In this document: piece by piece, positions 20,798 through 41,082 of the stretch
Position numbering within the stretch: position 1 is the stretch's first letter
Layout: each line of letters begins with the position of its first letter
Source of the DNA: Acidimicrobiia bacterium
GTDB taxonomy: Bacteria > Actinomycetota > Acidimicrobiia > Spongiisociales > ZC4RG35
Assembly: GCA_963665765.1 (NCBI GenBank)
Contig: OY762464.1
Span: forward strand, 233,741-297,740
Direction of reading: 5' to 3'
Length of the DNA: 64,000 nucleotides
Made by a program: the position numbers and the translations under genes
Notes under the pieces: model-generated
What the model was told of the DNA's origin: nothing
What the model saw: only the letters and a program-made list of their open reading frames with translations
Databases searched by the model: none

Positions 20798-20819
20798 CAG
20801 CAGCCGGTGCGGGGAAAGA

Positions 20820-22532: not shown

Positions 22533-22652
22533 CTTCCTGCTTCGAGGATTTTCCGGCGTGCGGATGAGTATACGAAATGTGTTTGTATTCTGGGATACCA
22601 AGCTTGTTATCATTGAACTCAACCATTCCAAGGACGGGAGACCACAAGGGCT

Positions 22653-24066: not shown

Positions 24067-24251
24067 GAGGATCGGTGGGCGGCTATGCCAAGCACAGTCA
24101 CCTCCTTCAACCGGCAAAAAGCGCCCGTCCGGCCGACAGTGGGCTGCCCGCATTGCCGATGCACATGGGCGACGAAATGCTCCTTGCAGAACCCGGCGTT
24201 GTGACGCCGCACAGAGATCACCGCCCCTTGGCAGCACACCCGACCCTTCAT
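24063..24251 (-). CDS. small Cys/His-rich hypothetical protein
   Basis: 62 aa with clustered Cys residues (CC..C..C..C). It sits exactly between the ThiS-like ORF stop and the proposed trmI start. No family assigned. Confidence 0.3.
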   Translation of the reverse strand: MKGRVCCQGAVISVRRHNAGFCKEHFVAHVHRQCGQPTVGRTGAFCRLKEVTVLGIAAHRSS

Positions 24252-24258
24252 GAGATGG

Positions 24259-24452
24259 TCAACCTCCCGAGCTAACCGGGCGCAACTCGATGACGTCGTG
24301 GGGGTGGAGACGCCCCCCGTCGGGAAGGAGTTGATCCTCCCTGCTCACCAGCACCGTCTCGGACATCAAGTCGAATCCGTTCAACAGGGCCTGAACTGTT
24401 TTCGGCCCCTGCAACTCGATCTCCGCCGTGGCTGATGCAATAGGACTTTCAT
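24259..24452 (-). pseudogene. ThiS/MoaD-like beta-grasp sulfur-carrier ORF ending in Gly-Gly, with an apparent -1 frame disruption
   Basis: Own translation gives MKVLLHQPRRR.. in one frame and ..IELQGPKTVQALLNGFDLMSETVLVSREDQLLPDGGRLHPHDVIELRPVSSGG* in the -1 frame. Joined they make about 65 aa, the ThiS size. Its ATG overlaps the stop of the upstream mini-ORF as ATGA. Confidence 0.4.
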
Positions 24453-24529
24453 TGGAAGACTGCCACCACCGAGCCCAGCAAGGTGAGTATCAAGGCCATC
24501 ACCAGGATCCATACCAAGGCTCTTCGCAT
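24449..24529 (-). CDS. 26-aa hydrophobic mini-ORF (MRRALVWILVMALILTLLGSVVAVFQ)
   Basis: Own translation: one predicted TM helix, an upstream aaaggag motif at sub-optimal spacing, and a stop overlapping the next ATG. Confidence 0.25.
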   Translation of the reverse strand: MRRALVWILVMALILTLLGSVVAVFQ

Positions 24530-24589
24530 CCGGTCGTTTCTCAAAGAACGCTCCTTTCGATAGCGTGTCTAGGCTTGTTTCAATACCTT

Positions 24590-24635
24590 ATACAAATATC
24601 GTGATAATCAACATACAAATATCGTGATAATCAAC
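24590..24635. repeat. perfect tandem duplication of a 23-bp AT-rich unit (atacaaatatcgtgataatcaac x2)
   Basis: Read directly from the sequence. Each unit contains a GTGATAATCA / GATAAT hexamer reminiscent of Fur-family half-sites. It stands out in a roughly 65% GC context. Confidence 0.85.
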
Positions 24636-24834
24636 CACCTCAAACGCCTGGCGAGGCGTAGCGCCTTCGGAGGGGCCCGCACCGGGGATGTCTGGCTGAT
24701 GATGGCCGGTCTGCTGGTGTGGCGCTGGGCGGCGGGGAAACGACGCCGGGGACGCTGATCCTCCAAACAACACGGCGGGGGGTCATCATCGGCCGGCAGC
24801 AACCTCGATTGGCTCTTTCGGGTCGTTTTCTCGA

Positions 24835-25053
24835 TCAAACCATGCGGGCCAGTTCGGAGATGGCCTTTCTTACCCGGCTTCGACCCCGGCGTCTCCCCAC
24901 CCAGTAGGCCACTCCCACCGCGGCCATCGCCCCCAGGCCCTTCAGAACCACCGGACTCTTCATCGACTCTCCGGTCTGGGTCAATACCTCGACGATCTCG
25001 CGGGCCTGCCGCTCGAGGTCCTCTCGAGTCACCGAGCCGTTTTGCTCACTCAT
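24835..25053 (-). CDS. small partner protein of the holin-like gene (DUF3618/YtxH-like?)
   Basis: 72 aa MSEQNGSVTREDLERQAREIVEVL.. with one C-terminal TM segment. Overlaps the upstream gene's stop. Confidence 0.45.
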   Translation of the reverse strand: MSEQNGSVTREDLERQAREIVEVLTQTGESMKSPVVLKGLGAMAAVGVAYWVGRRRGRSRVRKAISELARMV

Positions 25054-25348
25054 CACCGGTCCGGAGCCTTCCTGCCACAATCACCGTGGCCAAAAGGACA
25101 ACCACCGCCGTGAGGGCGGTCGAGGCGGCCGCCCACCACTGGCCCTGGGGGAGAATCTCACCGAGGAACTCATGCAGACCGAGCGCCAGCAGCACAACTC
25201 CCAGCCCCACCAGCAACATTGTGATGAGCGCCCGGGCAACTGATCGGCCGATGTTTTTCATCGGGTCCACGGTCTCTTGGCGCAGGTACTGTTTGGTGAG
25301 CTCGATCAAATCAGCCACCTGCTGGGGAAGTTCCTTGGGATCCGCCAT
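25046..25348 (-). CDS. phage-holin-family (actinobacterial Holin-X-like) two-TM protein
   Basis: About 100 aa: a charged amphipathic N-terminus (..LIELTKQYLRQE..) followed by two TM helices, as in PF07332-type chromosomal proteins. Confidence 0.55.
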   Translation of the reverse strand: MADPKELPQQVADLIELTKQYLRQETVDPMKNIGRSVARALITMLLVGLGVVLLALGLHEFLGEILPQGQWWAAASTALTAVVVLLATVIVAGRLRTGDE

Positions 25349-25447
25349 GAAGCACAAGGCTACACCGTCCCCGACGGTGGATGACCGGGGATCCTCGCCG
25401 ATGGGCGGTTACCAGGAGTTGTCTCATCCGCTCTTTATGATGGAACC

Positions 25448-26152
25448 ATGCCCACCGCAGCATCCGGCCCGGGGAGAATCTCAACCCGAACCTCTTCTTT
25501 TGGAGTTGGCCGACGCGAAAACCACGATTCGTCTGCTTTCTACGCTCGTTTCACCCCTCCTCTAATTGACCAGGTCGTCGCCCTCTACCTATCAGGTGAG
25601 ACTGGGACAGCGGCGCGACCGGTTGCCCACGGTGAAAGCCGAACACGAACAGAAACGCTTCGTCACGGCACCGGAGGTGCTATGAACCCGAATATTGAGG
25701 AACCCGAACGCCGCTTGATCCGCGACGCCATGGCCCGCCTACTGGACGGGGACCCCATCCGCTCCGACGGCAAACTCACCGTGAAGTCGCTGGCGGCCGA
25801 GGCTGGATTGAAGCGCTGGTACCTAACGCAAAAACACACCGATCTGCGCGATGAGTTCTACGACAGGGTCCGTGTCCAGGGCACCACACCCGCCGCCATG
25901 ACCCGGCTCTACGAAGAGATCGCAACGCTCAAAGAAGCCCACAAACGAGACCGACCGCGCTGCGCGACGCCATCGCAGAAAAGGAAATCTACGCCCGCGA
26001 GACACAGGTTCTCGCACTCGAGAACGCACAACTCAAAAAACAACCGAGCGCACCCGGGCTGGTGCGGCTCATCACAAGCGAGCCGAAGCCGCCCGACGAC
26101 TCTACCGCCTAACCGAGGGTTACCGGCTCTTCGGAAACGCATGGGGAAGTGA
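25448..26152 (+). pseudogene. chimeric/frameshifted ORF: duplicated 5' segment of the methyltransferase gene joined to an HTH plus leucine-zipper (IS OrfA-like) fragment
   Basis: Nucleotides about 25470-25560 are roughly 80% identical to 27640-27725 (protein ..TSSFGVGRRENHDSSAFYARF.PP). The downstream part (MNPNIEEPERRLIRDAMARLL..KLTVKSLAAEAGLKRWYL..) continues in another frame (..TALRDAIAEKEIYARETQVLALENAQLKK). Confidence 0.5.
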
Positions 26153-26324
26153 TGAGAGAAAGGATGACGGGAATCCGCCGTTTGTGTTGGGGGATACTCC
26201 ACAGCGGGGCTGGTGCCTTTGGCCGTGTCCACCCCGACAAACACCCTTGACCTCTTACCTGCCCACTGGAGGGGTGCTTTGCTAGCAACCCTGGGTTACT
26301 TGCGGCCCCTGTGCTCGAATGAAT

Positions 26325-27431
26325 CTAGTGGTGTGTCGCGGTTTTGGTTTGGGGGTTGAGGGCGGCTTTTCCTCGGCGTGCTTTGGTGATGATTTGTTGC
26401 GGGGTTTTGTGCCAGATGAAGGGTTTGGGATTTTGGTTCCAGTGGTCGGTCCAGGTGTTGATGGCTTCCACGAGTTGGTCTACGCTGATGAAACTGTCCC
26501 GACGGAGCCGTTTTTGGGTGAGTTCTCTGAACCATCGTTCGACCAGGTTCAGCCACGACGCCGAGGTGGGAGTGTAGTGAACATGCCAGCGGTGCTTGCG
26601 TTGAGGGGTTTCCAACCAGCGGATGACGTTTCGGTGTTTGTGAGCCGCGTAGTTGTCGATAACCAGGTGCACGTCCAGGTCGGGGGGAACATGACGTTCG
26701 ATCAGTTTCAAAAAGCCCAGGAACTCTTGATGACGGTGCCGTGGTCGACAATCGGTGATCACCCTCCCCGTGGCAGTGTCCAACGCCGCGTACAGGGTGG
26801 TGGTGCCGTGCCGTTTGTAATCATGGGTCATGGTTCCCGCCCGTCCGGGCTTGATCGGCAACGACTTCTGGGTGCGTTCCAAAGCCTGGATCTGAGACTT
26901 TTCGTCCACGCACAGGACCACCGCCCGTTCGGGCGGGTCCATGTACAAACCCACCACATCAACCAGTTTCTCCTCAAAACGGGGATCGTTAGACAACTTG
27001 AACGTCTCAGTACTCCAAGGTTTGAGGTTCCGAGCCCTCCAAATACGCGCTACCGTGTCTTTGCCTACCCCGTAACGAGCCGCCATCGTCCGGGTCGACC
27101 AATGTGTCGAACCGTCCGAAGGGCGGGAACGCAACGTGTCATCCACGATCTTGTTCACGACCTCCCCGCTGATCACCGGAGGCCGTCCCCGACCCGGTCT
27201 GACCACTCCCACACCCTCAACACCGTCCTCACCAAACCGTTTACGCCAAGCCCGAACAGTGTTAGCAGACACCCCCACCCGCCGACCGATCTCCTCGTTC
27301 GCTGTCCCATCAGCAGCCAACAACAACGCAGCAGCCTGACGAACACGACGAAACGGCGCCGAATCCGACCGGGCCATCACCTCCAACGCAGCACGCTGCT
27401 CAACCGACACCACCAACGGAGACGCAACCAT
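26325..27431 (-). CDS. IS630-family (Tc1/mariner-like) DDE transposase
   Basis: HTH N-terminus, then DDE core (..VLCVDEKSQIQAL..HLVIDNYAAHKH..SWLNLVERWF). Start placed at MVASPLVV. Confidence 0.9.
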   Translation of the reverse strand: MVASPLVVSVEQRAALEVMARSDSAPFRRVRQAAALLLAADGTANEEIGRRVGVSANTVRAWRKRFGEDGVEGVGVVRPGRGRPPVISGEVVNKIVDDTLRSRPSDGSTHWSTRTMAARYGVGKDTVARIWRARNLKPWSTETFKLSNDPRFEEKLVDVVGLYMDPPERAVVLCVDEKSQIQALERTQKSLPIKPGRAGTMTHDYKRHGTTTLYAALDTATGRVITDCRPRHRHQEFLGFLKLIERHVPPDLDVHLVIDNYAAHKHRNVIRWLETPQRKHRWHVHYTPTSASWLNLVERWFRELTQKRLRRDSFISVDQLVEAINTWTDHWNQNPKPFIWHKTPQQIITKARRGKAALNPQTKTATHH

Positions 27432-27482
27432 AGACACACACCCCAACACTAACACCCAAACCAAATAACAGACACACCACTA
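26326..27482. mobile_element. IS630-family insertion sequence (about 1.16 kb) with terminal inverted repeats and TA ends
   Basis: Left end tagtggtgtgtcgcggttttggtttgg matches the reverse complement of the right end ccaaaccaaataacagacacaccacta (CTAGTGGTGTGTC..TTTGGTTTGG). It encloses the transposase gene. Confidence 0.8.
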
Positions 27483-27588
27483 GCTTCCCTTCGTTCATTT
27501 GACCGCGATCCCTTGACTGGACATGTGTCTTTGGCAAGCACGTCTCTCGACCGGCGGATACCGGAAGTTGCCCCACCTGCCCTATAGG

Positions 27589-29052
27589 ATGACACCCATG
27601 ACGACAGAAGCGTTCGACTCTCGAAGGACCCCGACCGAGACATCTTCTTTTGGGGTTGGCCGGCGGGAGAGTCATGATTCGTCTGCTTTCTATGCGCGTT
27701 TCGATCCTCCTGTCATCGACCTGGACGAGCGTGTCGGTCGCCGCCCTCAGAGAGAAGGTCCGATCTTGGGCGATGCTAGGTCTATGAGCGATTTGCCGAG
27801 CAACTCGGTGGCGTTGGTGGTCACCTCGCCGCCTTATTTTGTGGGTAAGGAGTATGAGAACGAGGTGATGGTCGCTGCCCGGTCGGGGAATGTACTTTCG
27901 GAGGTTCCAGGCAGTTACAGGGAGTATTTGCGGCTGCTTCATGACGTTTTCCAAGAGTGCTATCGGGTGTTGGAACCGGGAGGTCGGATGGCGGTCAATG
28001 TGGCGAACCTGGGCCGTAAGCCTTATCGAAGCCTTTCTGCTGATGTGATCCGGATCTTTGGAGATCTCGGGTTGTTTCTTCGAGGTGAGATCATCTGGCG
28101 CAAAGCCGCTGCCAGTAGCGGTTCCTGCGCGTGGGGTTCGTTCCGCAGTCCCTCCAACCCGGTGCTGAGGGACGTGACGGAAAGGATCGTGGTGGCATCC
28201 AAGGGAAGGTTCGATCGTGCGCTGCCGCCCGCCCGCCGGCGAACTCTGGGGCTTCCCCATGTGGCCACGACCAACAGCGACGAGTTCATGGAAGCCACTT
28301 TGGACGTGTGGACAATCCCTGCCGAGAACGCCCGCAGAGTGGGTCACCCCGCCCCGTTTCCCGTCGAGCTACCCCTACGACTCATCCATCTGTACACCTA
28401 CGAAGATGACCTGGTGTTAGACCCGTTCTTAGGATCGGGAACTACTTTGCTAGCTGCCCTCCACGCGTCGCGAAGGGGCGTTGGGTACGACATCGACCCT
28501 GAATATGTTCAGATCGTCGAGGACAGACTTCAACAGGCCACGGTTGACGCCACCGATAATCGCCGAGTGTCTGTGTCGGTCGAAGGTGCCCGTTCCCTGG
28601 CACGGCGGACACTCGAGGAATCGGGATTCACCATCATCAAAACCAACCCGAAGTTAGGAGGCACCGGCGTCTCATACGACTTTCTTGTTGAGAACCGGTA
28701 CCGTCAGAGGTGGTATGTGGATGTGGCAGGAGGGTTCACCGCCGTCCAGCCGGGACTTCAACGCAGCACGGTGGTGTGGGAAACTCTCGGGAAGGCGCAT
28801 GTGCTTCACGGAACGGAAACCGCCAACGAGCCTCGGGTGCTGGTGATGACCCCCAAGTTGCCCAAGCCCGCAAGCCTGGGGCGGAAAGCCATCAATGCTG
28901 TTGGACCCCGGCGTCTGTTCGACCTCATTGAGCTTTCCAACGCTTCTGATCTTCTGCGGCTGCAGTGTTACGGGACGCAACTGACCGGCCGTCCCTCCCT
29001 TGGGTTCTGGACCACCGAGCAGATCAGTCAGTCCTTCTCGACCGACCGGTAG
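27589..29052 (+). CDS. beta-class N6-adenine/N4-cytosine DNA methyltransferase with an extra C-terminal domain of about 190 aa
   Basis: Motif IV SPPYFVGKEY precedes motif I DPFLGSGTTLLAA (PF01555-type order). Start placed at MTPMTTEAF; it lies immediately right of the IS630 end. Confidence 0.85.
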   Translation: MTPMTTEAFDSRRTPTETSSFGVGRRESHDSSAFYARFDPPVIDLDERVGRRPQREGPILGDARSMSDLPSNSVALVVTSPPYFVGKEYENEVMVAARSGNVLSEVPGSYREYLRLLHDVFQECYRVLEPGGRMAVNVANLGRKPYRSLSADVIRIFGDLGLFLRGEIIWRKAAASSGSCAWGSFRSPSNPVLRDVTERIVVASKGRFDRALPPARRRTLGLPHVATTNSDEFMEATLDVWTIPAENARRVGHPAPFPVELPLRLIHLYTYEDDLVLDPFLGSGTTLLAALHASRRGVGYDIDPEYVQIVEDRLQQATVDATDNRRVSVSVEGARSLARRTLEESGFTIIKTNPKLGGTGVSYDFLVENRYRQRWYVDVAGGFTAVQPGLQRSTVVWETLGKAHVLHGTETANEPRVLVMTPKLPKPASLGRKAINAVGPRRLFDLIELSNASDLLRLQCYGTQLTGRPSLGFWTTEQISQSFSTDR

Positions 29053-29100
29053 ATCCGAGACCGCCGGTCACCAAATTCCGGGCTTATAGCATCATCAACA

Positions 29101-30105
29101 ATGGCTTCTCTGCGAACCGAAATAACAGAGATCGTCACCGGACTGGGAATGTTGCCCCTGGGCAGCATAGAGGAAGCGCTCCAGGGCCGCCCCGCCGCCG
29201 TGGTGGGTGTTTCCGACAATCACTACGATCGCCTATCCGAAGCCCTTAGAAACCCTGCGAATCGTGGGCTGTTCGAAAGCGCGTGGGCGAACGGGAAAGC
29301 CTTCGCTCAAGCCAGGGAAGGACTGCGAGGCCGCACGCCTCTCAGGGTCGAATGGAAAGGACCTCACCAGCTGCCCGGCTACGAGCAGATCCCCGTGGAC
29401 CTGCGAGTGGACTACGTGTATCTGGTAAGTTGCAAATACGGCTCCAAACTGCTCCACAACGCCTCACCCTCTCACCTGTTTGACCGGCTTCTCGCTGTCC
29501 GCCGGGGACCAAGAGGGGACTGGTACAACGAAGTGGCCCCCGGCGGCTACCAGCGTTTCTATACTGCCTGCCGCGACCACCTGGGCGGTACAGACCTCCC
29601 AGAGAAGGTGACGGACCTGAACCGGGAGCAACGCAACCGCCTCAAGACATCATTCAAGCGCCACTGGCCTTCACCCCTCAAAAGCCCGTACCAACAGTTC
29701 ACTGCTCTGGTGTCAAACGCCTCCGCTCAACGTTGGGTGTCCGCGCTGGGAAACCGCGCCCAAACAAAGGAAGAACTTCTGTGGCGCCTGCTACGTCTCC
29801 AGCCCGCGCCTTACTTTGTGCTGGGAACATCCGGCAAGACTCCGGTGCGATACCGGATTGACACCCCCTGGGACTTCCGCCAACGCTACGAGTTCCGATC
29901 CTTTCACATCGAACCCGAGAAAACAGGACAACCACGAGTCCGATGGCAAGCTCAACTGAACGAGAAAACAACAGACAAACTCATCCAAGTAAAGGGACAT
30001 ATTGAAGTCCGATGGAGCCACGGACGCTTCCAAGGAGCCCCAGAAGCCAAGGTATATCTGGACACCAGTCCCTTGGAAACGGCCGGTTACAGAATACTGG
30101 TATAG
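29101..30105 (+). CDS. hypothetical protein; candidate cognate restriction endonuclease of the upstream methyltransferase
   Basis: 334 aa, same strand, 49 nt downstream of the methyltransferase gene. No recognisable family. Possible degenerate PD-(D/E)xK-like stretch ..PVDLRVDYVYLVSCKYG.. . The call rests on position only. Confidence 0.35.
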   Translation: MASLRTEITEIVTGLGMLPLGSIEEALQGRPAAVVGVSDNHYDRLSEALRNPANRGLFESAWANGKAFAQAREGLRGRTPLRVEWKGPHQLPGYEQIPVDLRVDYVYLVSCKYGSKLLHNASPSHLFDRLLAVRRGPRGDWYNEVAPGGYQRFYTACRDHLGGTDLPEKVTDLNREQRNRLKTSFKRHWPSPLKSPYQQFTALVSNASAQRWVSALGNRAQTKEELLWRLLRLQPAPYFVLGTSGKTPVRYRIDTPWDFRQRYEFRSFHIEPEKTGQPRVRWQAQLNEKTTDKLIQVKGHIEVRWSHGRFQGAPEAKVYLDTSPLETAGYRILV

Positions 30106-30284
30106 CCACCCTCAAACAGTCTTGCCTAGCCCGCCAGGGGAAGGTCTCCGCAAAGTGCCTGTCCGGTCAAGCACTAAATCGGCTCTTCGGATTTCTCGGG
30201 GGAGTTGGGTATCTATCGATTGTGATGGGGGGTCCTCCATAATTCGGGTGCTGAAGCAATTTCGCATCCGAGAAGGAGGACCCT

Positions 30285-31143
30285 GTGGAGACTGGTGGTA
30301 GGCGTATGTGCGAGGTGCTGGTTGGGCTGGGTGAGGTGGACCTGGTAGGAGTCGAGGAGCTGTCGGGAGACCGGCTGAGAGTCACTATTCGGTCTCGTGG
30401 GCCTCGCCCGGTGTGTGAGGGGTGTGGTGGGAGGGTGTGGTCCAAAGGTGATCGGCTGGTGCGATTGGTGGACTTACCGGCGTTCGGTTGTCCGGTGCGG
30501 CTGCGGTGGAAGAAACGCCGCTGGGTGTGCCCAGATGTGATGTGTGGTATGAAATCGTTCGCGGAGCAGGACCTGTCGGTGGTACCGGAGCGGGCGTTGT
30601 TGACGTCTCGAGCGGGACGTTGGGCAACCCAGCAGGTCGGGCGTCTTGGTCGCACGGTGTCGGAGGTGGCAGAAGAGTTGGGGTGTAGTTTGGCACACGG
30701 TCAACCGTGAGATCGTCCGTTGGGGAGACGCGCTGTTGGAAGCCGATGTTTCGCGGTTCGGTGCCGTGGAAGCGGTAGGTGTGGACGAGACCCTGTTCTG
30801 GCGCAAGGGCCAGTGGAGGAAGAGCAGTGGTGCACGTCGGTGGTAGACGTTGGTGGCCATCAGCTGTTGGATATTGTGCCTGGTAGAACAGCTGAAAGCG
30901 CCGCCAGTTGGTTCCGGAACCGACCCGATGGGTGGTGTGAGGCGATTCGGTGGGCGGTGCTGGACATGTCAGGCCCCTACCAGGTCGCCTACGACCGGGT
31001 GCTGCCCCACGCCCATTCAGGTGGCCGACCCATTCCATGTGGTCCGGCTGGCGAACCGCTGTGTTGACCTGGTACGCCGACGGGTCCAGAACGAAACACT
31101 GGGACAGAGCCTGTATACATGTCTGTGTGAGGTGGTTCTTTGA
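30285..31143 (+). pseudogene. ISL3-family transposase, multiply frameshifted and 3'-truncated
   Basis: Zinc-finger N-terminus (..CEGCGGRVWSKGDRLVRLVDLPAFGCPVRLRWKKRRWVC..). ISL3 blocks continue across three frames (..VGVDETLFWRKG.. / ..LLDIVPGRTAESAASWF.. / ..DPFHVVRLANRCVDLVRRRVQNETLG..) and end where the IS256 copy begins. Confidence 0.8.
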
Positions 31144-31187
31144 GCTTGGCTGGCGAGGTGGCTGGCCTGTGAAGGAGATGATTTGAA

Positions 31188-32230
31188 ATGACTGCTAGAG
31201 ATGTGACGGAACGGGCGGCTGTGGCTGTGGTGTCTGATGAGCTTGTGGAGGCGGTGGTGGCTGATGCGGCTTCTGGTGGTGTGGAGCTTTTGGGTCCTGA
31301 TGGGGTGCTGGCCGAGTTGACCAAGCGTGTGCTGGAACGGGCTTTGGCCGAGGAACTGACCGATCATTTGGGCTACGAGCATGGTGATCCTATGGGTCAT
31401 GGGACGGGTAACAACCGTAACGGGTCCACTCCCAAGAGGGTGCTGACCGAGATCGGAGCGGTGGATCTGGACGTTCCCCGTGACCGTAACGCCACGTTCG
31501 AACCCAAGATCGTTCCGAAGGGCGCCCGCCGGCTGGAACGTTTCAACGCCAACGTCGTGGCGTTGTACGCCCGGGGTCTGTCCACCCGTGACATTCGCTC
31601 CGAGCTGGCCCGCATGTACGGCGTGGACGTGTCGCCGGCGCTGGTGTCGAAAATCACCGACGGGATCGTCGAGGAGCTCACCGAGTGGCACAAATCGGCC
31701 TCTTGACGGGTGCTATCCGCTTCTGTACATAGACGCCATGGTGGTAAAGGTCCAAAAGCGACGGCACGGTCATCAACCGCCCAGCTTATGTGGTGGTCGG
31801 CGTGGACGTGGAAGGCCGCAAACACGTCCTCGGTGTCTGGTTGGGCGACGGCGGCCAAGCGCGCCAAACTTCTGGCTGTCGGTGCTGACCGAGAATGCGC
31901 CACCGAGGCCTCGAAGACGTGCTGATCGTGTGCTGCGACGGCCTCAAGGGACTCCCTGACGCGATTGAGGCCACTTGGCCCCAGGCGCTGGTACAGACCT
32001 GTGTCATACATCTGCTGCGGGCCTCTACGAGGCTTTGCAGCCGGGGAAGACCGCAAAATGATCGCCAAGGGGTTACGGGCTGTGTACACCGCGGTGAACG
32101 CCGAAGCGGCCGCCCAGGCGTTGGAAGAACTCGACGACCAGTGGGGAGATCGCTATCACACCGGGATGCTCCTATGTTTGATGGTCCCCGGGTTTTGTGG
32201 AGTCAGCTTACTTGGATCAGTGGTGTGACG
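31188..32230 (+). pseudogene. IS256-family transposase, frameshifted and 3'-truncated
   Basis: N-terminus ..LAEELTDHLGYEHGDP..NRNGSTPKRVLTEIGAVDLDVPRDRNATFEPKIV... Later blocks sit in other frames (..LYIDAMVVKV.. / ..[34 protein letters not shown]..), cut off by the IS3 insertion. Confidence 0.8.
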
Positions 32231-33115
32231 GTTTGGTTGTTGTGGTAGTGGTTGGTTTCGTATTCGATCGGGGTGAGCATGTTCAGGGACGTGTGGCGCC
32301 GTTGGCGGTTGTGGAAGACTTCTAGGTATTCGAAGATAGCGTTGGCGAGTTCGATACGGGTCCTCCAGCGTTGGCGGTCCAACAGTTCGACTTGCATACG
32401 GGCCCAGAACGCCTCCATCAGGGCGTTATCAAAGCAGTCGCCGACGGTCACCGATCGACGGTACGAGTCCGGAATCGTGGGCTCGTTGGGTGAACGCCCA
32501 GAAGGGTGCATCTGGGTGCCCTGGTCCGAGTGTATAACCGTTCCTGAGCGCGGCTGGCGGTTGCTGATTGCCATACCAAGTGCGGAGGTGACCAGTCCCG
32601 CGGTCGGAGAGTTGTCGATTGACCAGCCCACGACCCGGCGGCTGAACACGTCAAGCACTCCACGGCACAGTACACCCTGCCTTCCCGGGTGGGATGTTCG
32701 GTTATATCGGTCACCCACAACTGGTCCGGTTCGGAACGGGCCAAGGTTGCGGTCGACCAAGTCGACAGGGGTGTCCACGGGACGGGGGCGCCGCCTGGGC
32801 CGGCGGCTTCCACTAAGACCAGCTATGCCGGCTCGGCGCATCAGCATCGCTACCGCGTTGTGCCCGACGGTGATCCCATGACCCAATGCGAGTTCGGCAT
32901 GTACCCGCCGTGCTCCATAGATACCCCGTGACCCATGATGGATCTGACAGATGATGTCGGTGAGCCACGCGTGGCGAATTAGACCGGGCCGACGGAGGAC
33001 GGGACCTCCACACAAAGAATCCCGACTCCGACCACACCCAGCACGCCACCTGGGTGGAGAGCCCCTCGGTTCTCATGGTCTGGATCGCTTCGTAGCGTCT
33101 TTTGCGGTGCACCAC
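32203..33115 (-). pseudogene. IS3-family transposase OrfB (DDE integrase core, extra frameshifts) plus the C-terminal part of OrfA
   Basis: ..WVTDITEHPTREGRVYCAV.. / ..DVFSRRVVGWSIDNS..VIHSDQGTQ.. / ..DCFDNALMEAFWARMQVELL.. split over two frames. OrfA tail ..TELTVTKRAIELLKGKVVHRKRRYEAIQTMRTEGLSTQVACWV. Confidence 0.8.
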
Positions 33116-33180
33116 CTTGCCTTTGAGCAGCTCGATAGCTCGCTTCGTTACGGTTAGTTCGGTTTCCAGTTCTCTATCCG

Positions 33181-35133
33181 GCCCGAGTTTGGCGGGTCAA
33201 GGGGGTTTGGTGGGATGTGATTGGTGTGTTGACCTGGGGTTTTGTGTTGTGAGGGGTTGCTTCTGCACGATATTGTAGGGGCGACAGTTGGTTGGTGTTA
33301 GGGAGGTGGTGCTGGTAGTATTGTGGGGTATGTTCGTTAAGACGACCCGCCGTAGGAGGGGCGACAAGGTTTACGAGTACTTGTCGTTGGTGGAAACGGT
33401 TCGCAAGGGGTCGAAGATCGGCCATCGGACCCTGTTGCGCCTGGGAGAAGTCACCGCTTTACGCCAATCGGGACAGTTGGGACGGATCATCGCCGCGTTG
33501 GAACGTCACCTGCACAAAGAACGCGTCGACGTTGACAGCTTGGCCGCCGAGGGAGCACCCGCGGTAGGAGCAGTAGCCGCAGCGGCCGCGGTATGGAAAC
33601 AACTGGATCTCGGGGGGTTCTTCACAAAAGTAGGCGCGGAACGCCGTGCTGACGTTTTGGAACATGCAGTGTTCGCGATGGTGGCGAACCGGCTGGTAGC
33701 CCCGTGTTCGAAACGTCGTCTGCCCGAATGGACAGAACATGACGTGGTGATGCCCCAAGGCTGGTCAGCGCCGTCGTTGGACCAGTACTACCGGGCCTTG
33801 GACGCCGTCGCCGACACCAAGAACGAGACCGAGGAGCATTTGTATCGGCGGTTGTGCAACCTGACCAACCTGAACCTTCGGCTGGTGTGCTATGACCTGA
33901 CATCCACCTATTTTGAGGGTTCGACCCAAAAGTCGGAAGCGTTTCCGTCGCGGGTGTTCGGGTATTCGCGGGATCATCGCCCGGACAGGCCCCAGATCGT
34001 GATCGGTCTGTTGTGCACCACAGACGGGATCCCGATAGCCCATCATGTGTTCTCGGGGAACACCAACGACGCCTCCACCCTACCCGGGGTGTTGGAAGAC
34101 CTGGCGGGACGGTTCGCGGTGGGCAGGATCTGTGTGGTTTCCGACCGGGGGCTCATATCAGCATCTAACCTGGAAACGGTCACCCAAGCGGGGTTTGATC
34201 ACCTGCTGGCCACCAGACTCCGCCGCGATCGGATCACCGCCCAAGCGCTTTCGGCTATTGACCAGGACACTGTGTGGGTGCAGCTACCCGAACACGGTTC
34301 CAGGGCCGCTGATATCACCCTCGAAGACGGGACCCGCACGGTGGTGGTCGAGTCCGACGCTCGTGCCCGTCGGGACACACAACGCACCGCCGAACTTATC
34401 GCCGCTGCCGAAACGCAGTTGTTGGCGTTGGAACATCGTGTCCGTTCGGGGAGACTGAAAGACCCCGCCAAGATCGGGAGAGCCGCCCAACGCATCCTCG
34501 GCACCGGGCGGGTCGGGCGACTGTTCGACCTCGAGATCGGACCAGGTCGCTTTCTCTACCACTACAACGAGGACAACCAGGCATATGAGAAGCTGTTGGC
34601 GGGTCGCTATGTGCTGACCACCAGTCTCACATCCGCACAAGCCGACACCGCCGAAGTGGTGGCCTGCTATCGCCAACTGCAAACCGTCGAAACCCGCTTT
34701 CGGGTGCTCAAAGACTTCCTACGACTACGGCCGGTGCGGCACTGGACCGAGAAACGAGTCCGCGGTCACGTAGCGGTCTGTGTGTACGCCGCTTTGATGG
34801 AAACGCTCATCACCCAGGCTCTCACCGCAGCCGATGTCCGCGATCCCGACCTCGAACACCAACACCTCACCGCCGCACGGGCCCTCCAACAACTCAACCG
34901 CGTCCGCCGCGTGGAACTGACCACCAACAACCACCAGATCACCATAACCACCCGACGCACCCCCCTACAAACACGGGCACTCGCCGCCATCGGAGTCGAC
35001 ACCCGCACCTGGGACAAAGCCACCATCACCTAACCACCACACCGGCTCAAACACCGAATGTAGTGGAAACACCTTCTTCGCGTATGCCCCCTGACCTGGT
35101 AAAACACAAAACCACCCGCCAAACTCGGGTCCG
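33181..35133. mobile_element. IS1634-family insertion sequence (about 1.95 kb), apparently intact, inserted into the IS3 orfA
   Basis: Terminal inverted repeat (g)cccgagtttggcgggt at the left end, reverse-complemented as acccgccaaactcgggtc at about 35116-35133. Flanking IS3 OrfA reading frames resume on both sides. Confidence 0.75.
33330..35033 (+). CDS. IS1634-family transposase
   Basis: 567 aa uninterrupted with characteristic blocks (..YEYLSLVE..RLVCYDLTSTYFEG..VVSDRGL..). Start at MFVKTTRRRRGDKVYEY. Confidence 0.85.
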   Translation: MFVKTTRRRRGDKVYEYLSLVETVRKGSKIGHRTLLRLGEVTALRQSGQLGRIIAALERHLHKERVDVDSLAAEGAPAVGAVAAAAAVWKQLDLGGFFTKVGAERRADVLEHAVFAMVANRLVAPCSKRRLPEWTEHDVVMPQGWSAPSLDQYYRALDAVADTKNETEEHLYRRLCNLTNLNLRLVCYDLTSTYFEGSTQKSEAFPSRVFGYSRDHRPDRPQIVIGLLCTTDGIPIAHHVFSGNTNDASTLPGVLEDLAGRFAVGRICVVSDRGLISASNLETVTQAGFDHLLATRLRRDRITAQALSAIDQDTVWVQLPEHGSRAADITLEDGTRTVVVESDARARRDTQRTAELIAAAETQLLALEHRVRSGRLKDPAKIGRAAQRILGTGRVGRLFDLEIGPGRFLYHYNEDNQAYEKLLAGRYVLTTSLTSAQADTAEVVACYRQLQTVETRFRVLKDFLRLRPVRHWTEKRVRGHVAVCVYAALMETLITQALTAADVRDPDLEHQHLTAARALQQLNRVRRVELTTNNHQITITTRRTPLQTRALAAIGVDTRTWDKATIT

Positions 35134-35330
35134 GCGGCGAGCAGCCCGCAGTTCTGTTTGCTCTGCTGAAGTAGAGCCGGGTTCTACACCACGGTCAATC
35201 AAGTCCTGGCGCCGCCAGTTGTAGATGGTCTGGTCTGACACTCCAAGGTCCTTCGACAGAGATGCAACTGACCTGCCAGATGCAAGCAGATCCAACACCC
35301 TGCGACGGAACTCGGGCGGACATTTCGATA
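35134..35330 (-). pseudogene. N-terminal fragment of the IS3-family OrfA (HTH), separated from the rest by the IS1634 insertion
   Basis: ..PPEFRRRVLDLLASGRSVASLSKDLGVSDQTIYNWRRQDLIDRG..AEQTELRAARRR then runs into the IS1634 repeat. Confidence 0.6.
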
Positions 35331-35435
35331 CGGCATGAAGACCCTCCTTTTCGGGGTCGGTCACCACCAATTCAAATAACCCGACCCCACAAAAGCGGGG
35401 GCACACCTAACCCCCTCTATGAAACCCGGTGTGAT

Positions 35436-36230
35436 TCAGGATGGGCTCGGTGGCAGTTCGCTTGTAAGTTTGAGAGGTTGGGGCAATTCCGCATTCGATT
35501 CCAGTCCGAGTGCCTCCTTCAGGGACGATGCCAGCCCCGCCCAGTCGCTGTCCGGTTTCCGAAGGCGGTCAAGCGCATCTCGTAGGCTGTTGTCTGACGT
35601 AATAAACACATCGGCCCCGGCTCTTATGGCCGCGGCATAAATGTATGCATCCATCACTTCCATAAGAACGTGGGACCAGACCTCCTGTGCATCAACCCAG
35701 ATGCTATCGGGTGGTACCCATAATCCCGCGGAGGGGTCCTCCACGTCGATTACGTCAAGACGGTAGTCCACCCGGAGTTCGTCGCGGAAGGTCTGCAATT
35801 GATGACCCAACTCGGTGTAGTCTGTTTCCTCCAGGGCAACTCGGAACAACACTTGGGGGCGTTTCACCCGGAGGCTGTGCGGCACCCGTTGACGAATCAG
35901 GTGCTCCAAGCCACGAGCCTCAAGAAGCACGTGATGTAGTTCAGACCAGCAGACTTGTGATGAGAAGTAGAGGTAACCGTCGTCGGCTTTGAGGTGTTGG
36001 AATAACTTCATACCGTCCTTGACGAATTGGGCATCGGTCTTGTTGAGTGCGTCTGTAACCACGTCAGCGGACTCAAGCGCTGTCTTCAGTTCCCCCCAGT
36101 CCGAAACCGCATCGAGTTGGACTTTCGCAGTCGTGCAAGTATCCCAAAACTGGAATAGCCTCACTAAGACGTTGGTATCAAGGAATACGCTCGGCTGAAC
36201 CCTCACGCCGGACGCACTGGCAATTGTCAC
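35436..36230 (-). CDS. PIN-like nuclease-domain protein (gene 4 of the four-gene operon)
   Basis: 264 aa. N-terminus ..SVFLDTNVLVRLF.. and C-terminus ..DAYIYAAAIRAGADVFITSDNSL.. bracket a PIN-type fold with acidic residues. Start overlaps the upstream gene's stop by 4 nt. Confidence 0.55.
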   Translation of the reverse strand: MTIASASGVRVQPSVFLDTNVLVRLFQFWDTCTTAKVQLDAVSDWGELKTALESADVVTDALNKTDAQFVKDGMKLFQHLKADDGYLYFSSQVCWSELHHVLLEARGLEHLIRQRVPHSLRVKRPQVLFRVALEETDYTELGHQLQTFRDELRVDYRLDVIDVEDPSAGLWVPPDSIWVDAQEVWSHVLMEVMDAYIYAAAIRAGADVFITSDNSLRDALDRLRKPDSDWAGLASSLKEALGLESNAELPQPLKLTSELPPSPS

Positions 36231-37393
36231 GTCTTGGCGGGTCCCGGATACAAATCTGCCTCGGCGTCCTCTACGAGTGCTGCGGAGAGTGGAACGTCCT
36301 CTTTCCGTTCAAGGGCTAGGCCAATGGTGTGCCACATGATCTTGATCAATCGTCGCGGACTTGATCGGCTCGTCTCACGGAGCCCGTTCAAAGCGTCTTC
36401 AGAGAACGGCAGAATGCCCTCGCCGCCGTTGATCCGCGCTGGTTTTAGCCGCTGAGCAACGATGCCATAGGCTTCTTCCGCTGAAAGTGGGGGGATAATG
36501 TACCTGTTGACAAAACGCTGAACGAGAGACTTGTCGAGTTCCGACGTTCGAGCGAACCCTTCGGGAGTTGTTGACAAGATAATCCACAACTCTTCGCGCT
36601 GGGCAACATCAAGCAGCCGGCGCAGTGTAGTGGTGTATGCCGCAGCCTGGTTTTTGCTTAAGCGTCTAGCAAGTGCAATGTCCTCGAACTCGTCGAGCAG
36701 AAAGGCTATGCCGTCGGCGTCGAATATTCTCCTCAGGATGGTCACGATGGCTTGGAAGTACCCCGGCTCCTCTCGCTCGGCAACCAAAGACTTCCTAGCA
36801 CGAGGAACGAAGTCTCGATACTCGAAGTAGGGACGTTCACCAGTCTCGACAATGAGCCGCGAAAGCTTGTTCAAGATCTCATCGTCTGTTGCGATGCCTT
36901 GGTCTTTCATGGCTTGGGAGAGCGTCTGTATGGCCTGGTCGCGGAGCGTCCTGTTCCGAAGAGTGCCAAGCCACTGTCCGAACTCAGGCCAAAAGAGGGC
37001 CTGCTGGGCTGCTTCTGTGTTGTTCGGTTGGTACAGCATCTCCCAGAGAGCCTTCGTTACCTCGTAGCGTCCCACCTGACGCATGAGGCGGTTAGCAAGG
37101 TCATAGAACGCAACTCCGGGATTCTCAAAAAAATAGGATTTGACGCGATGTTCGGGAAGCACTTTGGCTTGAATCCAGTTGAGGATGAACGTCTTACCGG
37201 CTCCATACCCGCCCTCAATTATGAGTGCTTTGCTCCCTTGGGACTCGGCAAGGTTTTTAAATCGCATAAGTAGGTCTTTCTCCCAGCTGGGCGGGAGTGA
37301 GATATCATCCACGAATTCGGCCCCGGTGGTCGCAGGCGGAAAGGGATTACGGGTAAGGCCGAGATGGCTTAGTTGGGTATTGGCGACGGTCAT
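36227..37393 (-). CDS. ExeA/GspA-like AAA+ ATPase (AAA_22-type P-loop NTPase; gene 3 of the operon)
   Basis: N-terminal GLTRNPFPP motif typical of ExeA-like ATPases. Walker A IIEGGYGAGKTFIL and Walker B-like ..IAFLLDEFEDI... 388 aa. Confidence 0.6.
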   Translation of the reverse strand: MTVANTQLSHLGLTRNPFPPATTGAEFVDDISLPPSWEKDLLMRFKNLAESQGSKALIIEGGYGAGKTFILNWIQAKVLPEHRVKSYFFENPGVAFYDLANRLMRQVGRYEVTKALWEMLYQPNNTEAAQQALFWPEFGQWLGTLRNRTLRDQAIQTLSQAMKDQGIATDDEILNKLSRLIVETGERPYFEYRDFVPRARKSLVAEREEPGYFQAIVTILRRIFDADGIAFLLDEFEDIALARRLSKNQAAAYTTTLRRLLDVAQREELWIILSTTPEGFARTSELDKSLVQRFVNRYIIPPLSAEEAYGIVAQRLKPARINGGEGILPFSEDALNGLRETSRSSPRRLIKIMWHTIGLALERKEDVPLSAALVEDAEADLYPGPAKT

Positions 37394-38424
37394 GACCTTG
37401 GACCTCCGTTCTGCATGTGTTCGCTAAGCATCCGATGAATGCGGAGATGGGACAAGTAGGCACCGCTTGGTGAACGCAGGTAGCTTTTTAGCGCTAGGGC
37501 GTGCTGGCTATCGGGCAAACCTGCAGTGATGAATCCCACGCGTGTGGGAAGGCCGGCGACAAGACCGAAGTGGTCAGTCAGCCAACTCATGAGAACCCCC
37601 TTGGCCTGGTCAACCGAGACATGCTGCTTAATCCCCGTCGTCAAGGCGCAATCAGGGATCCGTATGGTCGCCCAGTCTCCAGCAAAATCCAGGGCAGCGA
37701 ACATTTCTACCGCTAGTTCGCGGTCGGTCATTCGTGGGACTATGTGTTTAGGATACGCGGTGTAGGTTCCGTTCGGTCTATACATGATGTCTAGGAAGCC
37801 AAGTTGGTCTACGCACCATGATCTGAGGCCGAAGTGAATTGCTTGAATGGCATCGACACCATTTAGGAGGCTCCATTTGGTGGTTCCGACGGGTCGAATC
37901 GCCACTTGCTTCCAGCGGTTCCGGCCAACATAGTGTTCTCGGTCGCTGTCGTGGTCGCCCCTTCGCTCAACACCTCTAGACTGGATAACGACTTCGACGG
38001 GACGCGCTCTCTCTACAAAAGATGTAGCATCGCAGGCCGCTTCTTGAGGTTGGAGGAAGTTCCTAAAGAACACGTCGTAACAGTCCTTGTTTCGGAGGAC
38101 TGCGTTAGCAAACGCCTCCTTCTCGGGTACCTGCAGTTCCTCCCCAAGTTTCGTTGTTGCAGTCAGAATACCTATTTCCGGATTCTGATAGTTGAGAACG
38201 AAGCGGCGCCCCTGCTTCTCCAGGAGATCTAATCGCACCAAGGTCCTCCGGTGGTGGTAATGGGTACTTTGGGCATAGGGCCGTCCGTCTCGGCGCAGGA
38301 GAACACCCTCCTCGGTGGCCAGTGTCTCGATTTCGTTTGCCCGGAGGCCGGGTGGGTGCTTATCAACCAAGAGGAGGAGGTCCCGTAGCGCCCGGAAGTT
38401 GAGCCAACGCATCCAGAGGTTCAT
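37390..38424 (-). CDS. hypothetical protein, possible N-terminal winged-helix domain (gene 2 of the operon)
   Basis: 344 aa with no confident family. 4-nt overlaps on both sides. Confidence 0.45.
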   Translation of the reverse strand: MNLWMRWLNFRALRDLLLLVDKHPPGLRANEIETLATEEGVLLRRDGRPYAQSTHYHHRRTLVRLDLLEKQGRRFVLNYQNPEIGILTATTKLGEELQVPEKEAFANAVLRNKDCYDVFFRNFLQPQEAACDATSFVERARPVEVVIQSRGVERRGDHDSDREHYVGRNRWKQVAIRPVGTTKWSLLNGVDAIQAIHFGLRSWCVDQLGFLDIMYRPNGTYTAYPKHIVPRMTDRELAVEMFAALDFAGDWATIRIPDCALTTGIKQHVSVDQAKGVLMSWLTDHFGLVAGLPTRVGFITAGLPDSQHALALKSYLRSPSGAYLSHLRIHRMLSEHMQNGGPRS

Positions 38425-39671
38425 GGGTTCGTGCCCTTCGACAAAAGGATCACCGATTCTCGGGATGGCTGTCGGCCGTAGCGCCCCATTTGCTGGGCAG
38501 CGTTTCCCCGGGTTCGCATCACCCAGACCGCCTCGAACTTTAGCCCCGCTTGGCTAGCTAATCCGGATACTATCTCATCGGCCGGCACCATGACCCCAGC
38601 GTGCCGGACGTTCCCCACGACGTAGGCTGCCCGCCCACCGGGTCGGAGAATTCGGTCGACCTCTACGAGGGATAGGTAGATGTCCTCAAAATATCCCTGC
38701 AGCAACCGCTTGACACGGTTGTCGGTATTCGCCGGCAGTGCCCGTAGAGTCTCCTGGAGCAACGCAATTGGCTTGTACGCTCCGAGTTGGCGCGTGAAGC
38801 CACGGGGTTTCTTAGCTTCCACATGAGAGCGGATGGAGCGATGCCGAAGCCTGGTGACTTCCGACTCGGCCTCTCCTAAAAGAAGCAATCCGATGTGGAA
38901 AACCCGAGAGTAATCGTGACGGTTCGCATAGGGAGGAGAGGTTATAAGACCGTCAACGGACAACGCCCCAATAGGGAGTTTCCGCGCATCAGCACATTTA
39001 ACCGATGCCGTGTGGTATTCCTCGGGCCAGTTGAGAGCCTCAACGTCGGCCATCATGACAGACACAGTCTCGTTGAAGACGTCCCTTATCTCGGTGCTGC
39101 GGTCGGGCCACTCCTGCCATCGGAACCATCCACCGTCGGGAACAGCCCGGCTAAAGCCCCGCATTGCGGACAAGAGCGCCACGAGGAAGAAGGAGCGGGG
39201 CGTTCCTTGTAGCCTGCGGATCGGTCGGAGGAGGGTAAATATCTCTCTCAATTCCGTCTCGGTAAAGGCTCGCGACAGCCTAGGCGAGACTTGTTGCGGA
39301 TCAACTGATGTGGCGGCGAGAATCCTACGGAAGGCCCGCTCAAGACTGTTCTGGTGGTAGGACGCGATTTTCGCGGTACCTACAGTTACAGACAGAGGGG
39401 AAATATCGAAGCCCAGAGCTGTCAATCCACGCTCCCGCGCGGTGAGCACAGTTGTCCCCGATCCCGAAAAATTGTCAGCGACGATGCCATCACTCGGAAA
39501 ATCCCAATAATCCAGAATCGTGTTAACTAGGCGGTACGAGTAGCTGTGTGGGAAGTAGAACCATCGGTGCCGCGGGGCGGAGCTGAGGTCTCGTGATGTC
39601 GCGGTGGCTGCCAGATCTGGTCTCTGGCTAAACCCTAGGGGAGCAGGTGATGTATCCATGGCTACGGTCAC
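38421..39671 (-). CDS. DNA methyltransferase (N6-adenine/N4-cytosine; motif I before motif IV; gene 1 of the operon)
   Basis: Motif I ..DNFSGSGTTVLTARERG.. near the N-terminus and motif IV ..LITSPPYANRHDYS.. about 190 aa later. 416 aa. Confidence 0.8.
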   Translation of the reverse strand: MTVAMDTSPAPLGFSQRPDLAATATSRDLSSAPRHRWFYFPHSYSYRLVNTILDYWDFPSDGIVADNFSGSGTTVLTARERGLTALGFDISPLSVTVGTAKIASYHQNSLERAFRRILAATSVDPQQVSPRLSRAFTETELREIFTLLRPIRRLQGTPRSFFLVALLSAMRGFSRAVPDGGWFRWQEWPDRSTEIRDVFNETVSVMMADVEALNWPEEYHTASVKCADARKLPIGALSVDGLITSPPYANRHDYSRVFHIGLLLLGEAESEVTRLRHRSIRSHVEAKKPRGFTRQLGAYKPIALLQETLRALPANTDNRVKRLLQGYFEDIYLSLVEVDRILRPGGRAAYVVGNVRHAGVMVPADEIVSGLASQAGLKFEAVWVMRTRGNAAQQMGRYGRQPSRESVILLSKGTNP

Positions 39672-40473
39672 GTCCGGCCCACACCAATGACCCGTATTGG
39701 AGAGAAGGTAGGTAGGAGATGCGTGGGCGAGGATGGGCGAGGCAGTGGTCCACTGCCCACCAGCGTTGGTTGAGTTCTTGGACGAACTAGCGCTTCTGTC
39801 TTTTGGGCCTCATGCAAGTCGTGCTCCCAGAGCCCGTCAAGCCACCCCATTTCACAAGGACCCTGTTTGATCACACCAAGCATCAGACCATGCAAGTCCA
39901 CCAATATCAGTCGAAAACCAACACCCATACATCCCCTCACATTAACGTCATTAGCCCCGCCACCATTAGGAGTGTTAGGGAGGACAAAGCGGTCCGGCTG
40001 GGGTATCGGGGTGTTTACACTACCTTTGACCCGGCGCCTAAGATGAGGGTTTGGGGAGAACACCACGGCTGGGGGAACACCACAATTCACCTTTTGGCTA
40101 CCCCACTTCCCTCACCTTGAGGCAGAATGGCTGGATACCGACCAGCCTCCGTCTGCCGCAGTGGACATTCCCGGCTCCCTAGTCGCACCAGGGACGTGGA
40201 CCGCCTTATGTGATGGAAGTTGCCGCTTGATATACCCCCGGGAGGCATGGATCCCAAGCATATCGCTTTCGATGACCGCTGGTGCACTCAGCAGCCGGGA
40301 AGAACCTTCGGGAACGCCATCACGCCATGACTGAGATGAAGGCCGAGTTGAAGCACGATATTCGTTCGACAGAGATGCGGACCAAGTGTTCCTGTGATCT
40401 TCGGTTTGTTTGAGTAGCGAAAGAGCCCCTTATCCATAACACGATCGTACCGTCCACAGAAGGAACCACCCTG

Positions 40474-41082
40474 GTGGCTGCCCGGCAGGCCTTGCGAAGA
40501 GGGGTGGGGTATGACATTGACTCCGAATATGTGCAGATCGCCGAAAAAAGATTGCAGGGCGTCACGGAGCAAACCTCCGAGGATCACCCCCTGGGCGAGT
40601 CCGGGGCGGTCAAGGGCGCCCGCGCCCGGGCGCGGCAGATACTTGAGGAATCGGGTTTCTCCATCGCCAAAACCTCCCCGAAGATCGGGCCAACCGGCGT
40701 CTCATACGAGTTTTTGATTGAAAACCAGCATCGTCAACGATGGTATGTGGATGTGGCCGGAAGTTTCACCACTGTCCAGCCGGGCCTGCAACGAAGCACG
40801 GTGGTGTGGGAGACACTGGGGAAGGCACATGTCCTCCACGAAACACCAAGCATCGATCAGCCTCGCGTGCTGGTCGTCACCCCCAAGCTGCCCAAACCCG
40901 CCAGTTGGGGCCGGAAGGCCATCACGGCGGTGGGACCCCGGCGCCTGTTCGACGCCATTGAACTCTCTGACCATTCCGACCTTCGGCGGCTTCGGTGGTA
41001 TGGAACCAAACCCGCTCCCCGCCCCGCCCCAGGATTCTGGACAAAACAACAGATCAGCCACTCCTTCCCCACCGCCCGGTAG
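40474..41082 (+). other. stand-alone paralog of the methyltransferase C-terminal domain (truncated methyltransferase copy; GTG start)
   Basis: 202 aa, about 80% identical to residues about 300-509 of the 27589..29052 methyltransferase (..RGVGYDID.EYVQI..ESGF.I.KT.PK.G.TGVSY.FL.EN..RQRWYVDVAG.FT.VQPGLQRSTVVWETLGKAHVLH..). Upstream 40420-40473 keeps a degenerate motif I (..TEGTTLVAA). Confidence 0.7.

Follow-up and report, generated by a model that had tools for sequence, protein, structure and literature searches.

The question raised by this locus is whether a DNA methyltransferase gene and the uncharacterised open reading frame (ORF) that follows it make up a restriction-modification system with a novel nuclease. 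Both genes are located in a 64,000-nucleotide stretch of the Acidimicrobiia contig OY762464.1 (assembly GCA_963665765.1, positions 233,741 to 297,740 of the forward strand), here referred to as the window. A first-pass annotation of the window had described an 'orphan-looking' beta-class methyltransferase next to an IS630 element, followed by a 334-aa ORF without recognisable family (ORF334), and had proposed the two as a novel type II pair. Comparison with related loci shows that the methyltransferase and ORF334 are a real, conserved and co-oriented pair; the term 'orphan-looking' was wrong for the window copy. What the pair does can be answered more tentatively: at somewhat less than an even chance in our estimate, it represents a restriction-modification-like module with a nuclease of an undescribed family.

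The candidate endonuclease partner, ORF334 (29101..30105, plus strand), starts 48 nt (rather than the 49 nt first given) after the stop codon of the methyltransferase gene and, as annotated, on the same strand, and no terminator-like site was found between the two genes. A scan based on ORF334, with one genome per species, identified a relative in at least 589 genomes, and the best 80 loci were analysed, two of which are uninformative (contig end), leaving 78. Of the 80 genome loci, 53 (53 of the 78 informative ones) have a homologous methyltransferase directly upstream of ORF334 in the same orientation, and the pair is therefore not a chance juxtaposition. The upstream methyltransferase in these paired loci usually carries the C-terminal domain described below, and the spacer between the two genes is short or absent in many loci. 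A second scan started from the methyltransferase, using its C-terminal domain as query against JGI metagenome contigs, and gave 71 informative loci, with ORF334 downstream of the methyltransferase in 41. The possibility raised in the first-pass annotation, that homologues of the ORF might never be linked to methyltransferases, is thus not what the genomes show, though linkage is far from obligatory.

Two further arrangements were observed in these scans. In a Planctomycetota metagenome-assembled genome (L076, 7036-7737) the ORF334 homologue is located between two methyltransferases that are 33% identical, giving an M-R-M-like layout. In a relative at ~80% identity (L085, 4212-6985; also L084) the methyltransferase and ORF334 are ~2.7 kb apart, and the spacer, in which a 464-aa ORF on the minus strand and a second copy of the methyltransferase 3' end are found, looks like an insertion.

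The methyltransferase ORF spans 27523-29052 in the ORF table, and translation from the ATG at 27589 yields 487 aa. Alignments with homologues begin at about residue 32-38 of the long ORF, so that translation probably starts at 27589 or, three codons on, at 27598. The catalytic part (27589..28557, plus strand) matches Pfam PF01555 N6_N4_Mtase (residues 96-333, E 5.7e-39, 134.8 bits against a curated cut-off of 26.7) and the PADLOC model MTase_II PDLC03350 (residues 33-339, E 4.3e-88), which bears out the class first assigned from an SPPY motif preceding DPFLGSGTT. In the translation, TSPPY (motif IV) stands ~200 residues N-terminal to DPFLGSGTT (motif I), the order of the beta class, and judged by its sequence the gene (27589-29052) is a beta-class N4-cytosine/N6-adenine DNA methyltransferase. 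The SPPY form of motif IV is commoner in N4-cytosine than in N6-adenine enzymes, and suggests N4-methylcytosine as the product. Homologues are 46-94% identical.

ORF334 encodes a basic protein (pI 9.85) with 3496 homologues at E <= 0.001, every one of which is named hypothetical and which are mostly from Acidimicrobiia metagenome-assembled genomes. Clustering at 50% gives 660 representatives, and the exact protein is present in sponge-associated Acidimicrobiia assemblies. The protein does lack a recognisable family, as first annotated: Pfam, NCBIfam and PHROGs returned no match, and 39 family members run against Pfam at E <= 5 have no family in common. Searches of PDB sequences with the single sequence and with the family profile, as well as a tblastn search of plasmids and phages, gave nothing, and the profile retrieved its own family alone, without remote annotated relatives, from 1.84 billion representatives. 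Among the longer family members, which were screened for domain fusions, only P0210 has an extra class-I methyltransferase-like region, and this may be a gene-call artefact.

The sole family match of ORF334 is a weak one, to the PADLOC restriction-enzyme model REase_II PDLC03456 (E 2.2e-5, residues 225-322 against profile positions 278-370 of 387). The same model matches 24 of 39 family members at E <= 0.01, and in all eight further members scanned singly (E 5.8e-5 to 0.09) the match falls on E.RWSHGRF.G.PEAK.YL, at profile positions 349-370. We regard this as real but weak evidence, at the level of sequence, for homology to the C-terminal part of a type II enzyme family listed in REBASE.

Conservation within the family was assessed in an alignment of 39 members (50-91% identical) and in one of 67 full-length sequences down to 29% identity. 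Invariant in the former are E84-W-K-G87, P98-x-D100-L-R-x-D104-x-V-x-L-x-S110-C-K112-Y, T-P-W-D258 and G299-H-x-E302-x-R-W-x-H307-G-x-F ... E315-A-K317, and the best-kept positions in the latter are D100 (66/67) and S110, K112, R304 and W305 (63/67 each). The segment that had been flagged at the outset as possibly a degenerate PD-(D/E)xK site, PVDLRVDYVYLVSCK, was well chosen, being the most conserved part of the family and located on a beta-hairpin in the predicted structure. This region, P98-V-D100-L-R-V-D104-Y-V-Y-L-V-S110-C-K112 (29392..29436, plus strand), is a candidate PD-(D/E)xK-like hairpin in which serine takes the place of the second acidic residue. A second invariant hairpin, E302-x-R-W-S-H307-G-R-F-x-G-x-P-E315-A-K317 (30004..30051, plus strand), is the part that aligns to the restriction-enzyme model.

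An AlphaFold model of ORF334 built on the 39-member alignment is confident (pLDDT 91, pTM 0.85). In this model D100 opens the strand 101-103 and S110-C-K112 closes the next strand (107-110), while E302 and E315/K317 are placed on the two strands of the second hairpin (294-305 and 314-320), and both hairpins, as modelled, resemble the geometry of a PD-(D/E)xK site. The structure prediction recommended in the first-pass annotation as a check for a nuclease fold turned out unfavourably, as no solved nuclease was matched. Significant Foldseek matches in PDB and in a library of predicted viral structures include no PD-(D/E)xK protein, the best match of that kind being a PDDEXK-annotated viral protein at probability 0.13. 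The viral library did yield six uncharacterised phage and giant-virus proteins that match ORF334 with probability 1.0 and TM 0.36-0.49. Other nuclease signatures were sought by reading the sequence and appear to be excluded: a phospholipase D-type (PLD) HxK motif at H307 would have the wrong spacing, and the residue is mostly R rather than K; a His-Me finger would lack the following helix; and the R-D-R motif of the CCGG family seems to be absent.

A nuclease-like fold is predicted elsewhere in the pair. The unusual C-terminal domain of the methyltransferase (28558..29052, plus strand) is real, although with ~165-170 aa it is shorter than the ~190 aa first estimated. It is kept in most methyltransferase homologues and has no match in Pfam or PHROG searches. 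Its AlphaFold model (pLDDT 91.5) has the order alpha-beta-beta-beta-alpha-beta-alpha-beta-alpha, and the best Foldseek match in PDB is NucS/EndoMS 2vld (probability 0.99, TM 0.39, E 0.024), followed by 5gke, BsoBI, XisH, SfsA, LmuA and EcoO109I, with E values of 0.02-0.1. The nine best-ranked matches are, we presume, restriction-endonuclease-like, with the exception of a low-probability LmuA chain at rank 8. According to the model, then, the domain has a PD-(D/E)xK-type (restriction-endonuclease-like) fold. A catalytic D...(D/E)xK set was looked for in alignments of its homologues and is missing: the motif WYV(D/E)V(A/S)G has an invariant glycine and A or S at the lysine position of ExK, D/E55 is the only conserved acidic residue, and the canonical first aspartate is variable. 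The diverse alignment of the domain was too variable for a pattern scan, for which a narrower one was suitable. The domain is probably a degenerate, non-catalytic nuclease-like one, which may serve in DNA binding, dimerisation or contact with a partner. Six genome loci have the methyltransferase-ORF334 pair without it, and the domain is therefore dispensable for the association of the two genes; an hhalign comparison detected no relation between it and ORF334.

In many distant Acidimicrobiia the pair occupies one and the same chromosomal locus, with the gene order carD (minus strand) ... methyltransferase, small ORF, ORF334, PolB-exonuclease-like gene (minus), glutaminyl cyclase (minus). Pairwise identities of ORF334 and of the adjacent carD rise and fall together (Pearson 0.96, Spearman 0.81, 37 loci), and methyltransferase identity follows carD likewise (Pearson 0.93), correlations that partly reflect two large clades. 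The small ORF encodes an acidic protein (pI 4.3) of ~100-115 aa and is present between methyltransferase and ORF334 in ~40 of the 80 genome loci and in 36 of the 71 metagenome loci (36 of the 41 paired ones), as exemplified by L079 (5654-6001). It has no known family, and no helix-turn-helix controller was detected in it by Pfam; a role as inhibitor or immunity protein is conceivable. The PolB-exonuclease/RNase H-like 3'-5' exonuclease gene runs convergent to ORF334 in many syntenic loci (L079, 6990-7643, minus strand); loci with glutaminyl cyclase immediately after the methyltransferase lack both it and ORF334. Most of the family is thus syntenic and tracks carD. The copy of the window has been relocated, as has that of L001, its closest relative, which is 83% identical and found in a different genomic context. 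Both of these lack the small ORF and the exonuclease-like gene.

The window copy sits on a mobile island rich in insertion sequences (IS). Directly upstream of the pair is the IS630-family element (26321..27487, minus strand), bounded by 37-nt inverted repeats (26321-26357 and 27451-27487) and encoding a 379-aa transposase (26325-27464, minus strand; Pfam DDE_3, E 1.5e-20, together with HTH domains). From the right inverted repeat to the methyltransferase ATG the distance is 101 nt, close to the ~100 bp first noted. On either side of the island are remains of another copy of the methyltransferase gene. A 5' remnant (25446..25577, plus strand), which retains the promoter region and roughly 41 codons from the start of the gene, is 73-77% identical in nucleotides to 27596-27727, and a 3' remnant (40462..41082, plus strand), covering residues ~306-509 with the C-terminal domain, is 69-73% identical in amino acids to the intact copy. 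In a related assembly (L081) the corresponding gene is intact and solitary (6001-7587), flanked by a TrmI/holin-X block and a gene for an AAA_14 ATPase. The two regions are collinear on both sides (window 19447-25377 corresponds to L081 5-5839, and 42970-44111 to the ATPase gene), and window 25409-25570 and 40462-41076 match the two ends of the L081 gene, the 3' remnant corresponding to L081 6841-7557. The resident orphan methyltransferase was therefore split by an insertion; it has lost ~720 bp of its middle and now encloses an IS-rich segment of ~14.9 kb (25578..40461). This segment holds the IS630 element, the intact methyltransferase-ORF334 pair, transposase-like ORFs and a second methyltransferase operon, so that the paralogue carried by the island is 69-73% identical (amino acid) to the very gene which the island disrupts. 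The resident remnant, used as a homology query, gave two fragment matches among the matches listed. Apart from the methyltransferase, ORF334 and the remnants, no ORF of 100 aa or more between 12 and 46 kb of the window has a counterpart around the related loci.

The remainder of the island and its surroundings hold several other ORFs. Directly downstream of ORF334, 30285-35033 is a run of transposase ORFs, whose families were judged by eye from the translations as a split ISL3-like, an IS256-like fragment, an IS3 OrfB-like (minus strand) and a 581-aa IS1634/IS4-like transposase. The second operon (35436-39671, minus strand) has four genes, encoding a 416-aa methyltransferase (PADLOC MTase_II PDLC03224, E 4.8e-52), a 344-aa protein without family, a 388-aa ATPase with weak BrxD and mad8 matches and a 264-aa protein without family, and it may be another methylation-associated defence system. 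Between the 5' remnant of the resident gene and the IS630 element lies a short ORF (25679-26152; MNPNIEEPERRLIRDAMARLL...) that has no Pfam or PADLOC family and is in frame with the remnant, resulting in a 234-aa chimeric ORF (25448-26152). At 44336-45076 the translation resembles the C-terminal part of a type I HsdM-like methyltransferase, which suggests a region rich in DNA-modification genes.

How, then, should the pair be understood? If it acts as a restriction-modification-like module, the methyltransferase would mark the host genome and ORF334, as a Mg2+-dependent endonuclease from a family not yet described, would cut DNA without the mark, with an active site formed by one or both of the invariant beta-hairpins (E84/D100/D104/S110-x-K112; E302/E315-x-K317) and the two genes presumably co-transcribed. 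We are inclined to this reading because the conserved, co-oriented adjacency survives relocation, because of the match to PDLC03456, because a basic protein carries invariant hairpins with acidic residues and lysine, and because the window copy rides on a mobile island. To this extent the original proposal of a novel type II pair is sustained, the recurrent match to a restriction-enzyme model included; it is weakened by the absence of any nuclease fold match, by facultative linkage with intact solitary ORFs and by vertical inheritance at the level of the class. As the structure comparison placed ORF334 in none of the known nuclease folds (PD-(D/E)xK, HNH, GIY-YIG, PLD, half-pipe), membership among type II restriction-modification systems is not established.

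The evidence against a restriction function deserves to be given in full. Foldseek retrieved for the ORF334 model no solved nuclease or other structure from PDB at E <= 0.001, and in the model the strand following the SCK hairpin is joined by a short loop instead of the usual helix crossover, and the order of strands from that hairpin on departs from the canonical alpha-beta-beta-beta-alpha-beta core. The match to PDLC03456 is weak and centred on ~22 residues, and the model itself may have been built from uncharacterised REBASE entries. The linkage of the two genes is facultative, far from obligatory. No methyltransferase occurs within 6 kb of ORF334 in 25 of the 78 informative genome loci, which comprise 20 from one Poriferisocius clade, with the ORF334 homologue between carD and a DUF429 gene, and L038, L048, L071/L078 and L074 in other contexts. 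These solitary copies retain every invariant residue, and a toxic restriction enzyme would not be expected to persist without its cognate methyltransferase unless an unlinked methyltransferase protects the DNA. Conversely, 30 of the 71 metagenome loci (~40%) are devoid of ORF334 in the 1.4-4 kb of sequence downstream of the methyltransferase, and in 20 of these 30 glutaminyl cyclase comes directly after the methyltransferase, that is, the same syntenic locus minus the module; L081 and L082 are further solitary methyltransferases in complete-looking contexts. Finally, the pair is mostly inherited vertically at the fixed locus between carD and glutaminyl cyclase, which is unusual for restriction-modification systems.

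The same vertical pattern may be read as the signature of a housekeeping module, in which the methyltransferase writes a class-wide epigenetic mark and ORF334 reads or acts on it, for instance as a methyl-directed nuclease in nicking or repair, in the manner of MutH with Dam, with the acidic small protein and the exonuclease-like gene acting alongside where present. Single-molecule real-time (SMRT) metagenomics of marine samples has revealed that every Acidimicrobiia genome examined is methylated at CGCG and BAAAA (Hiraoka et al. 2022, PMC8919816). In one of them the modifications are given as m6A and m4C (PMC8919816), of which m6A is here assigned by us to BAAAA and m4C to CGCG. The methyltransferase genes were scored as orphans, two were shown experimentally to make BAAAA, and M.AspCt9H300mP26I and M.AspCt9H90mP5I are the enzymes named for the class-wide marks (PMC8919816). 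Since the methyltransferase family of the window is both class-wide and syntenic, it is a candidate writer of one such mark, as a lead only. Such a role would fit the synteny from carD to glutaminyl cyclase across distant Acidimicrobiia, the parallel divergence of ORF334 and carD, and the ability of both genes to stand alone, as dam and mutH do. ORF334 is, however, homologous neither to MutH or Vsr nor to any other repair nuclease; the exonuclease gene, being convergent, may be a mere syntenic neighbour; the copies of the window and L001 move without it and without the small ORF; and the tie to the published marks is no firmer than just stated. We consider a housekeeping role rather unlikely. 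Its fullest form, an ancient vertical Acidimicrobiia system of methyltransferase, acidic small ORF and ORF334, in which ORF334 would be a nuclease or reader of the CGCG m4C or BAAAA m6A mark with a fold not seen before, serving strand discrimination, repair or chromosome maintenance, and from which mobile copies such as that of the window would derive, seems to us similarly improbable.

ORF334 might also be no nuclease at all, and instead a DNA-binding or regulatory partner that provides the methyltransferase with specificity, targeting or control and uses its hairpins for binding. A basic protein whose model matches no nuclease fold and whose putative motif has serine instead of a second acidic residue would suit this, and persistence away from a methyltransferase would be tolerable for a non-toxic protein. 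But acidic and lysine residues that are invariant and placed on hairpins more typically serve catalysis, the match to a restriction-enzyme model is left unaccounted for, and a methyltransferase that is alone in many lineages (the 30 of 71 loci without ORF334) needs no specificity partner, and we hold this explanation to be unlikely as well. Least probable is that the adjacency has no functional meaning and that two ancestral neighbours were carried together onto the island. Both genes are solitary in many genomes, and carD and glutaminyl cyclase are equally position-conserved neighbours, yet the pair stays adjacent and co-oriented in the unrelated contexts of the window island, L001 and L076, and spacers are short or absent in many loci. 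The restriction-modification-like module is accordingly the reading with which we proceed, tentatively.

By itself, one more candidate family of restriction enzymes would be routine. This one is set apart by its size and conservation and by having no solved structural relative, and in addition by the nuclease-like appendage of the methyltransferase, the acidic intervening ORF and the mix of states, from linked and unlinked to solitary and mobile. Should ORF334 be an endonuclease, it would found a restriction-enzyme family with thousands of members and look-alikes among uncharacterised proteins of phages and giant viruses. The loci also constitute a natural experiment, as the same methyltransferase and partner are found linked, unlinked, alone, or on a mobile island that took the place of a resident orphan copy, and such mixed states bear on the interconversion of orphan methyltransferases and restriction systems. 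The family may, moreover, explain who writes or reads the class-wide marks of Acidimicrobiia.

Classical type II restriction-modification systems with beta-class N4-cytosine methyltransferases are exemplified by PvuII and BamHI. The pair resembles these in consisting of separate, adjacent and co-oriented genes for a methyltransferase and a candidate nuclease, in the SPP(Y/F) form of motif IV, and in the mobility of the window copy. It differs in that the partner has no detectable nuclease fold match, the system is mostly vertical at a single locus and linkage is facultative, while the methyltransferase has an extra nuclease-like domain, and an acidic ~100-aa ORF, not a helix-turn-helix controller, is present in most loci. 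Active sites of the Cfr10I/NgoMIV/Bse634I type have the form PD...SxK, with serine for the second acidic residue, as ORF334 does in S-C-K. The spacing from D to K is 12 residues in ORF334 and about 47-53 in those enzymes, and ORF334 has neither their R-D-R recognition motif nor a match to them in sequence or structure. With PDLC03456, a cluster of type II restriction enzymes from REBASE, ORF334 has the E.RWSHGRF.G.PEAK segment in common, though the alignment is confined to the C-terminal quarter (E 2e-5 to 0.09). The C-terminal domain of the methyltransferase, for its part, shares the predicted alpha-beta-beta-beta-alpha-beta fold with the C-terminal nuclease domain of NucS/EndoMS and with other PD-(D/E)xK-fold proteins, and departs from them in lacking a conserved first aspartate and in having A/S-G where the lysine of ExK would be. 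Compared by description only, the methyltransferase family of the window is like the orphan-scored methyltransferases of marine Acidimicrobiia (PMC8919816) in its class-wide distribution and in often having no recognised restriction gene alongside, and unlike them in that ORF334 often stands next to it.

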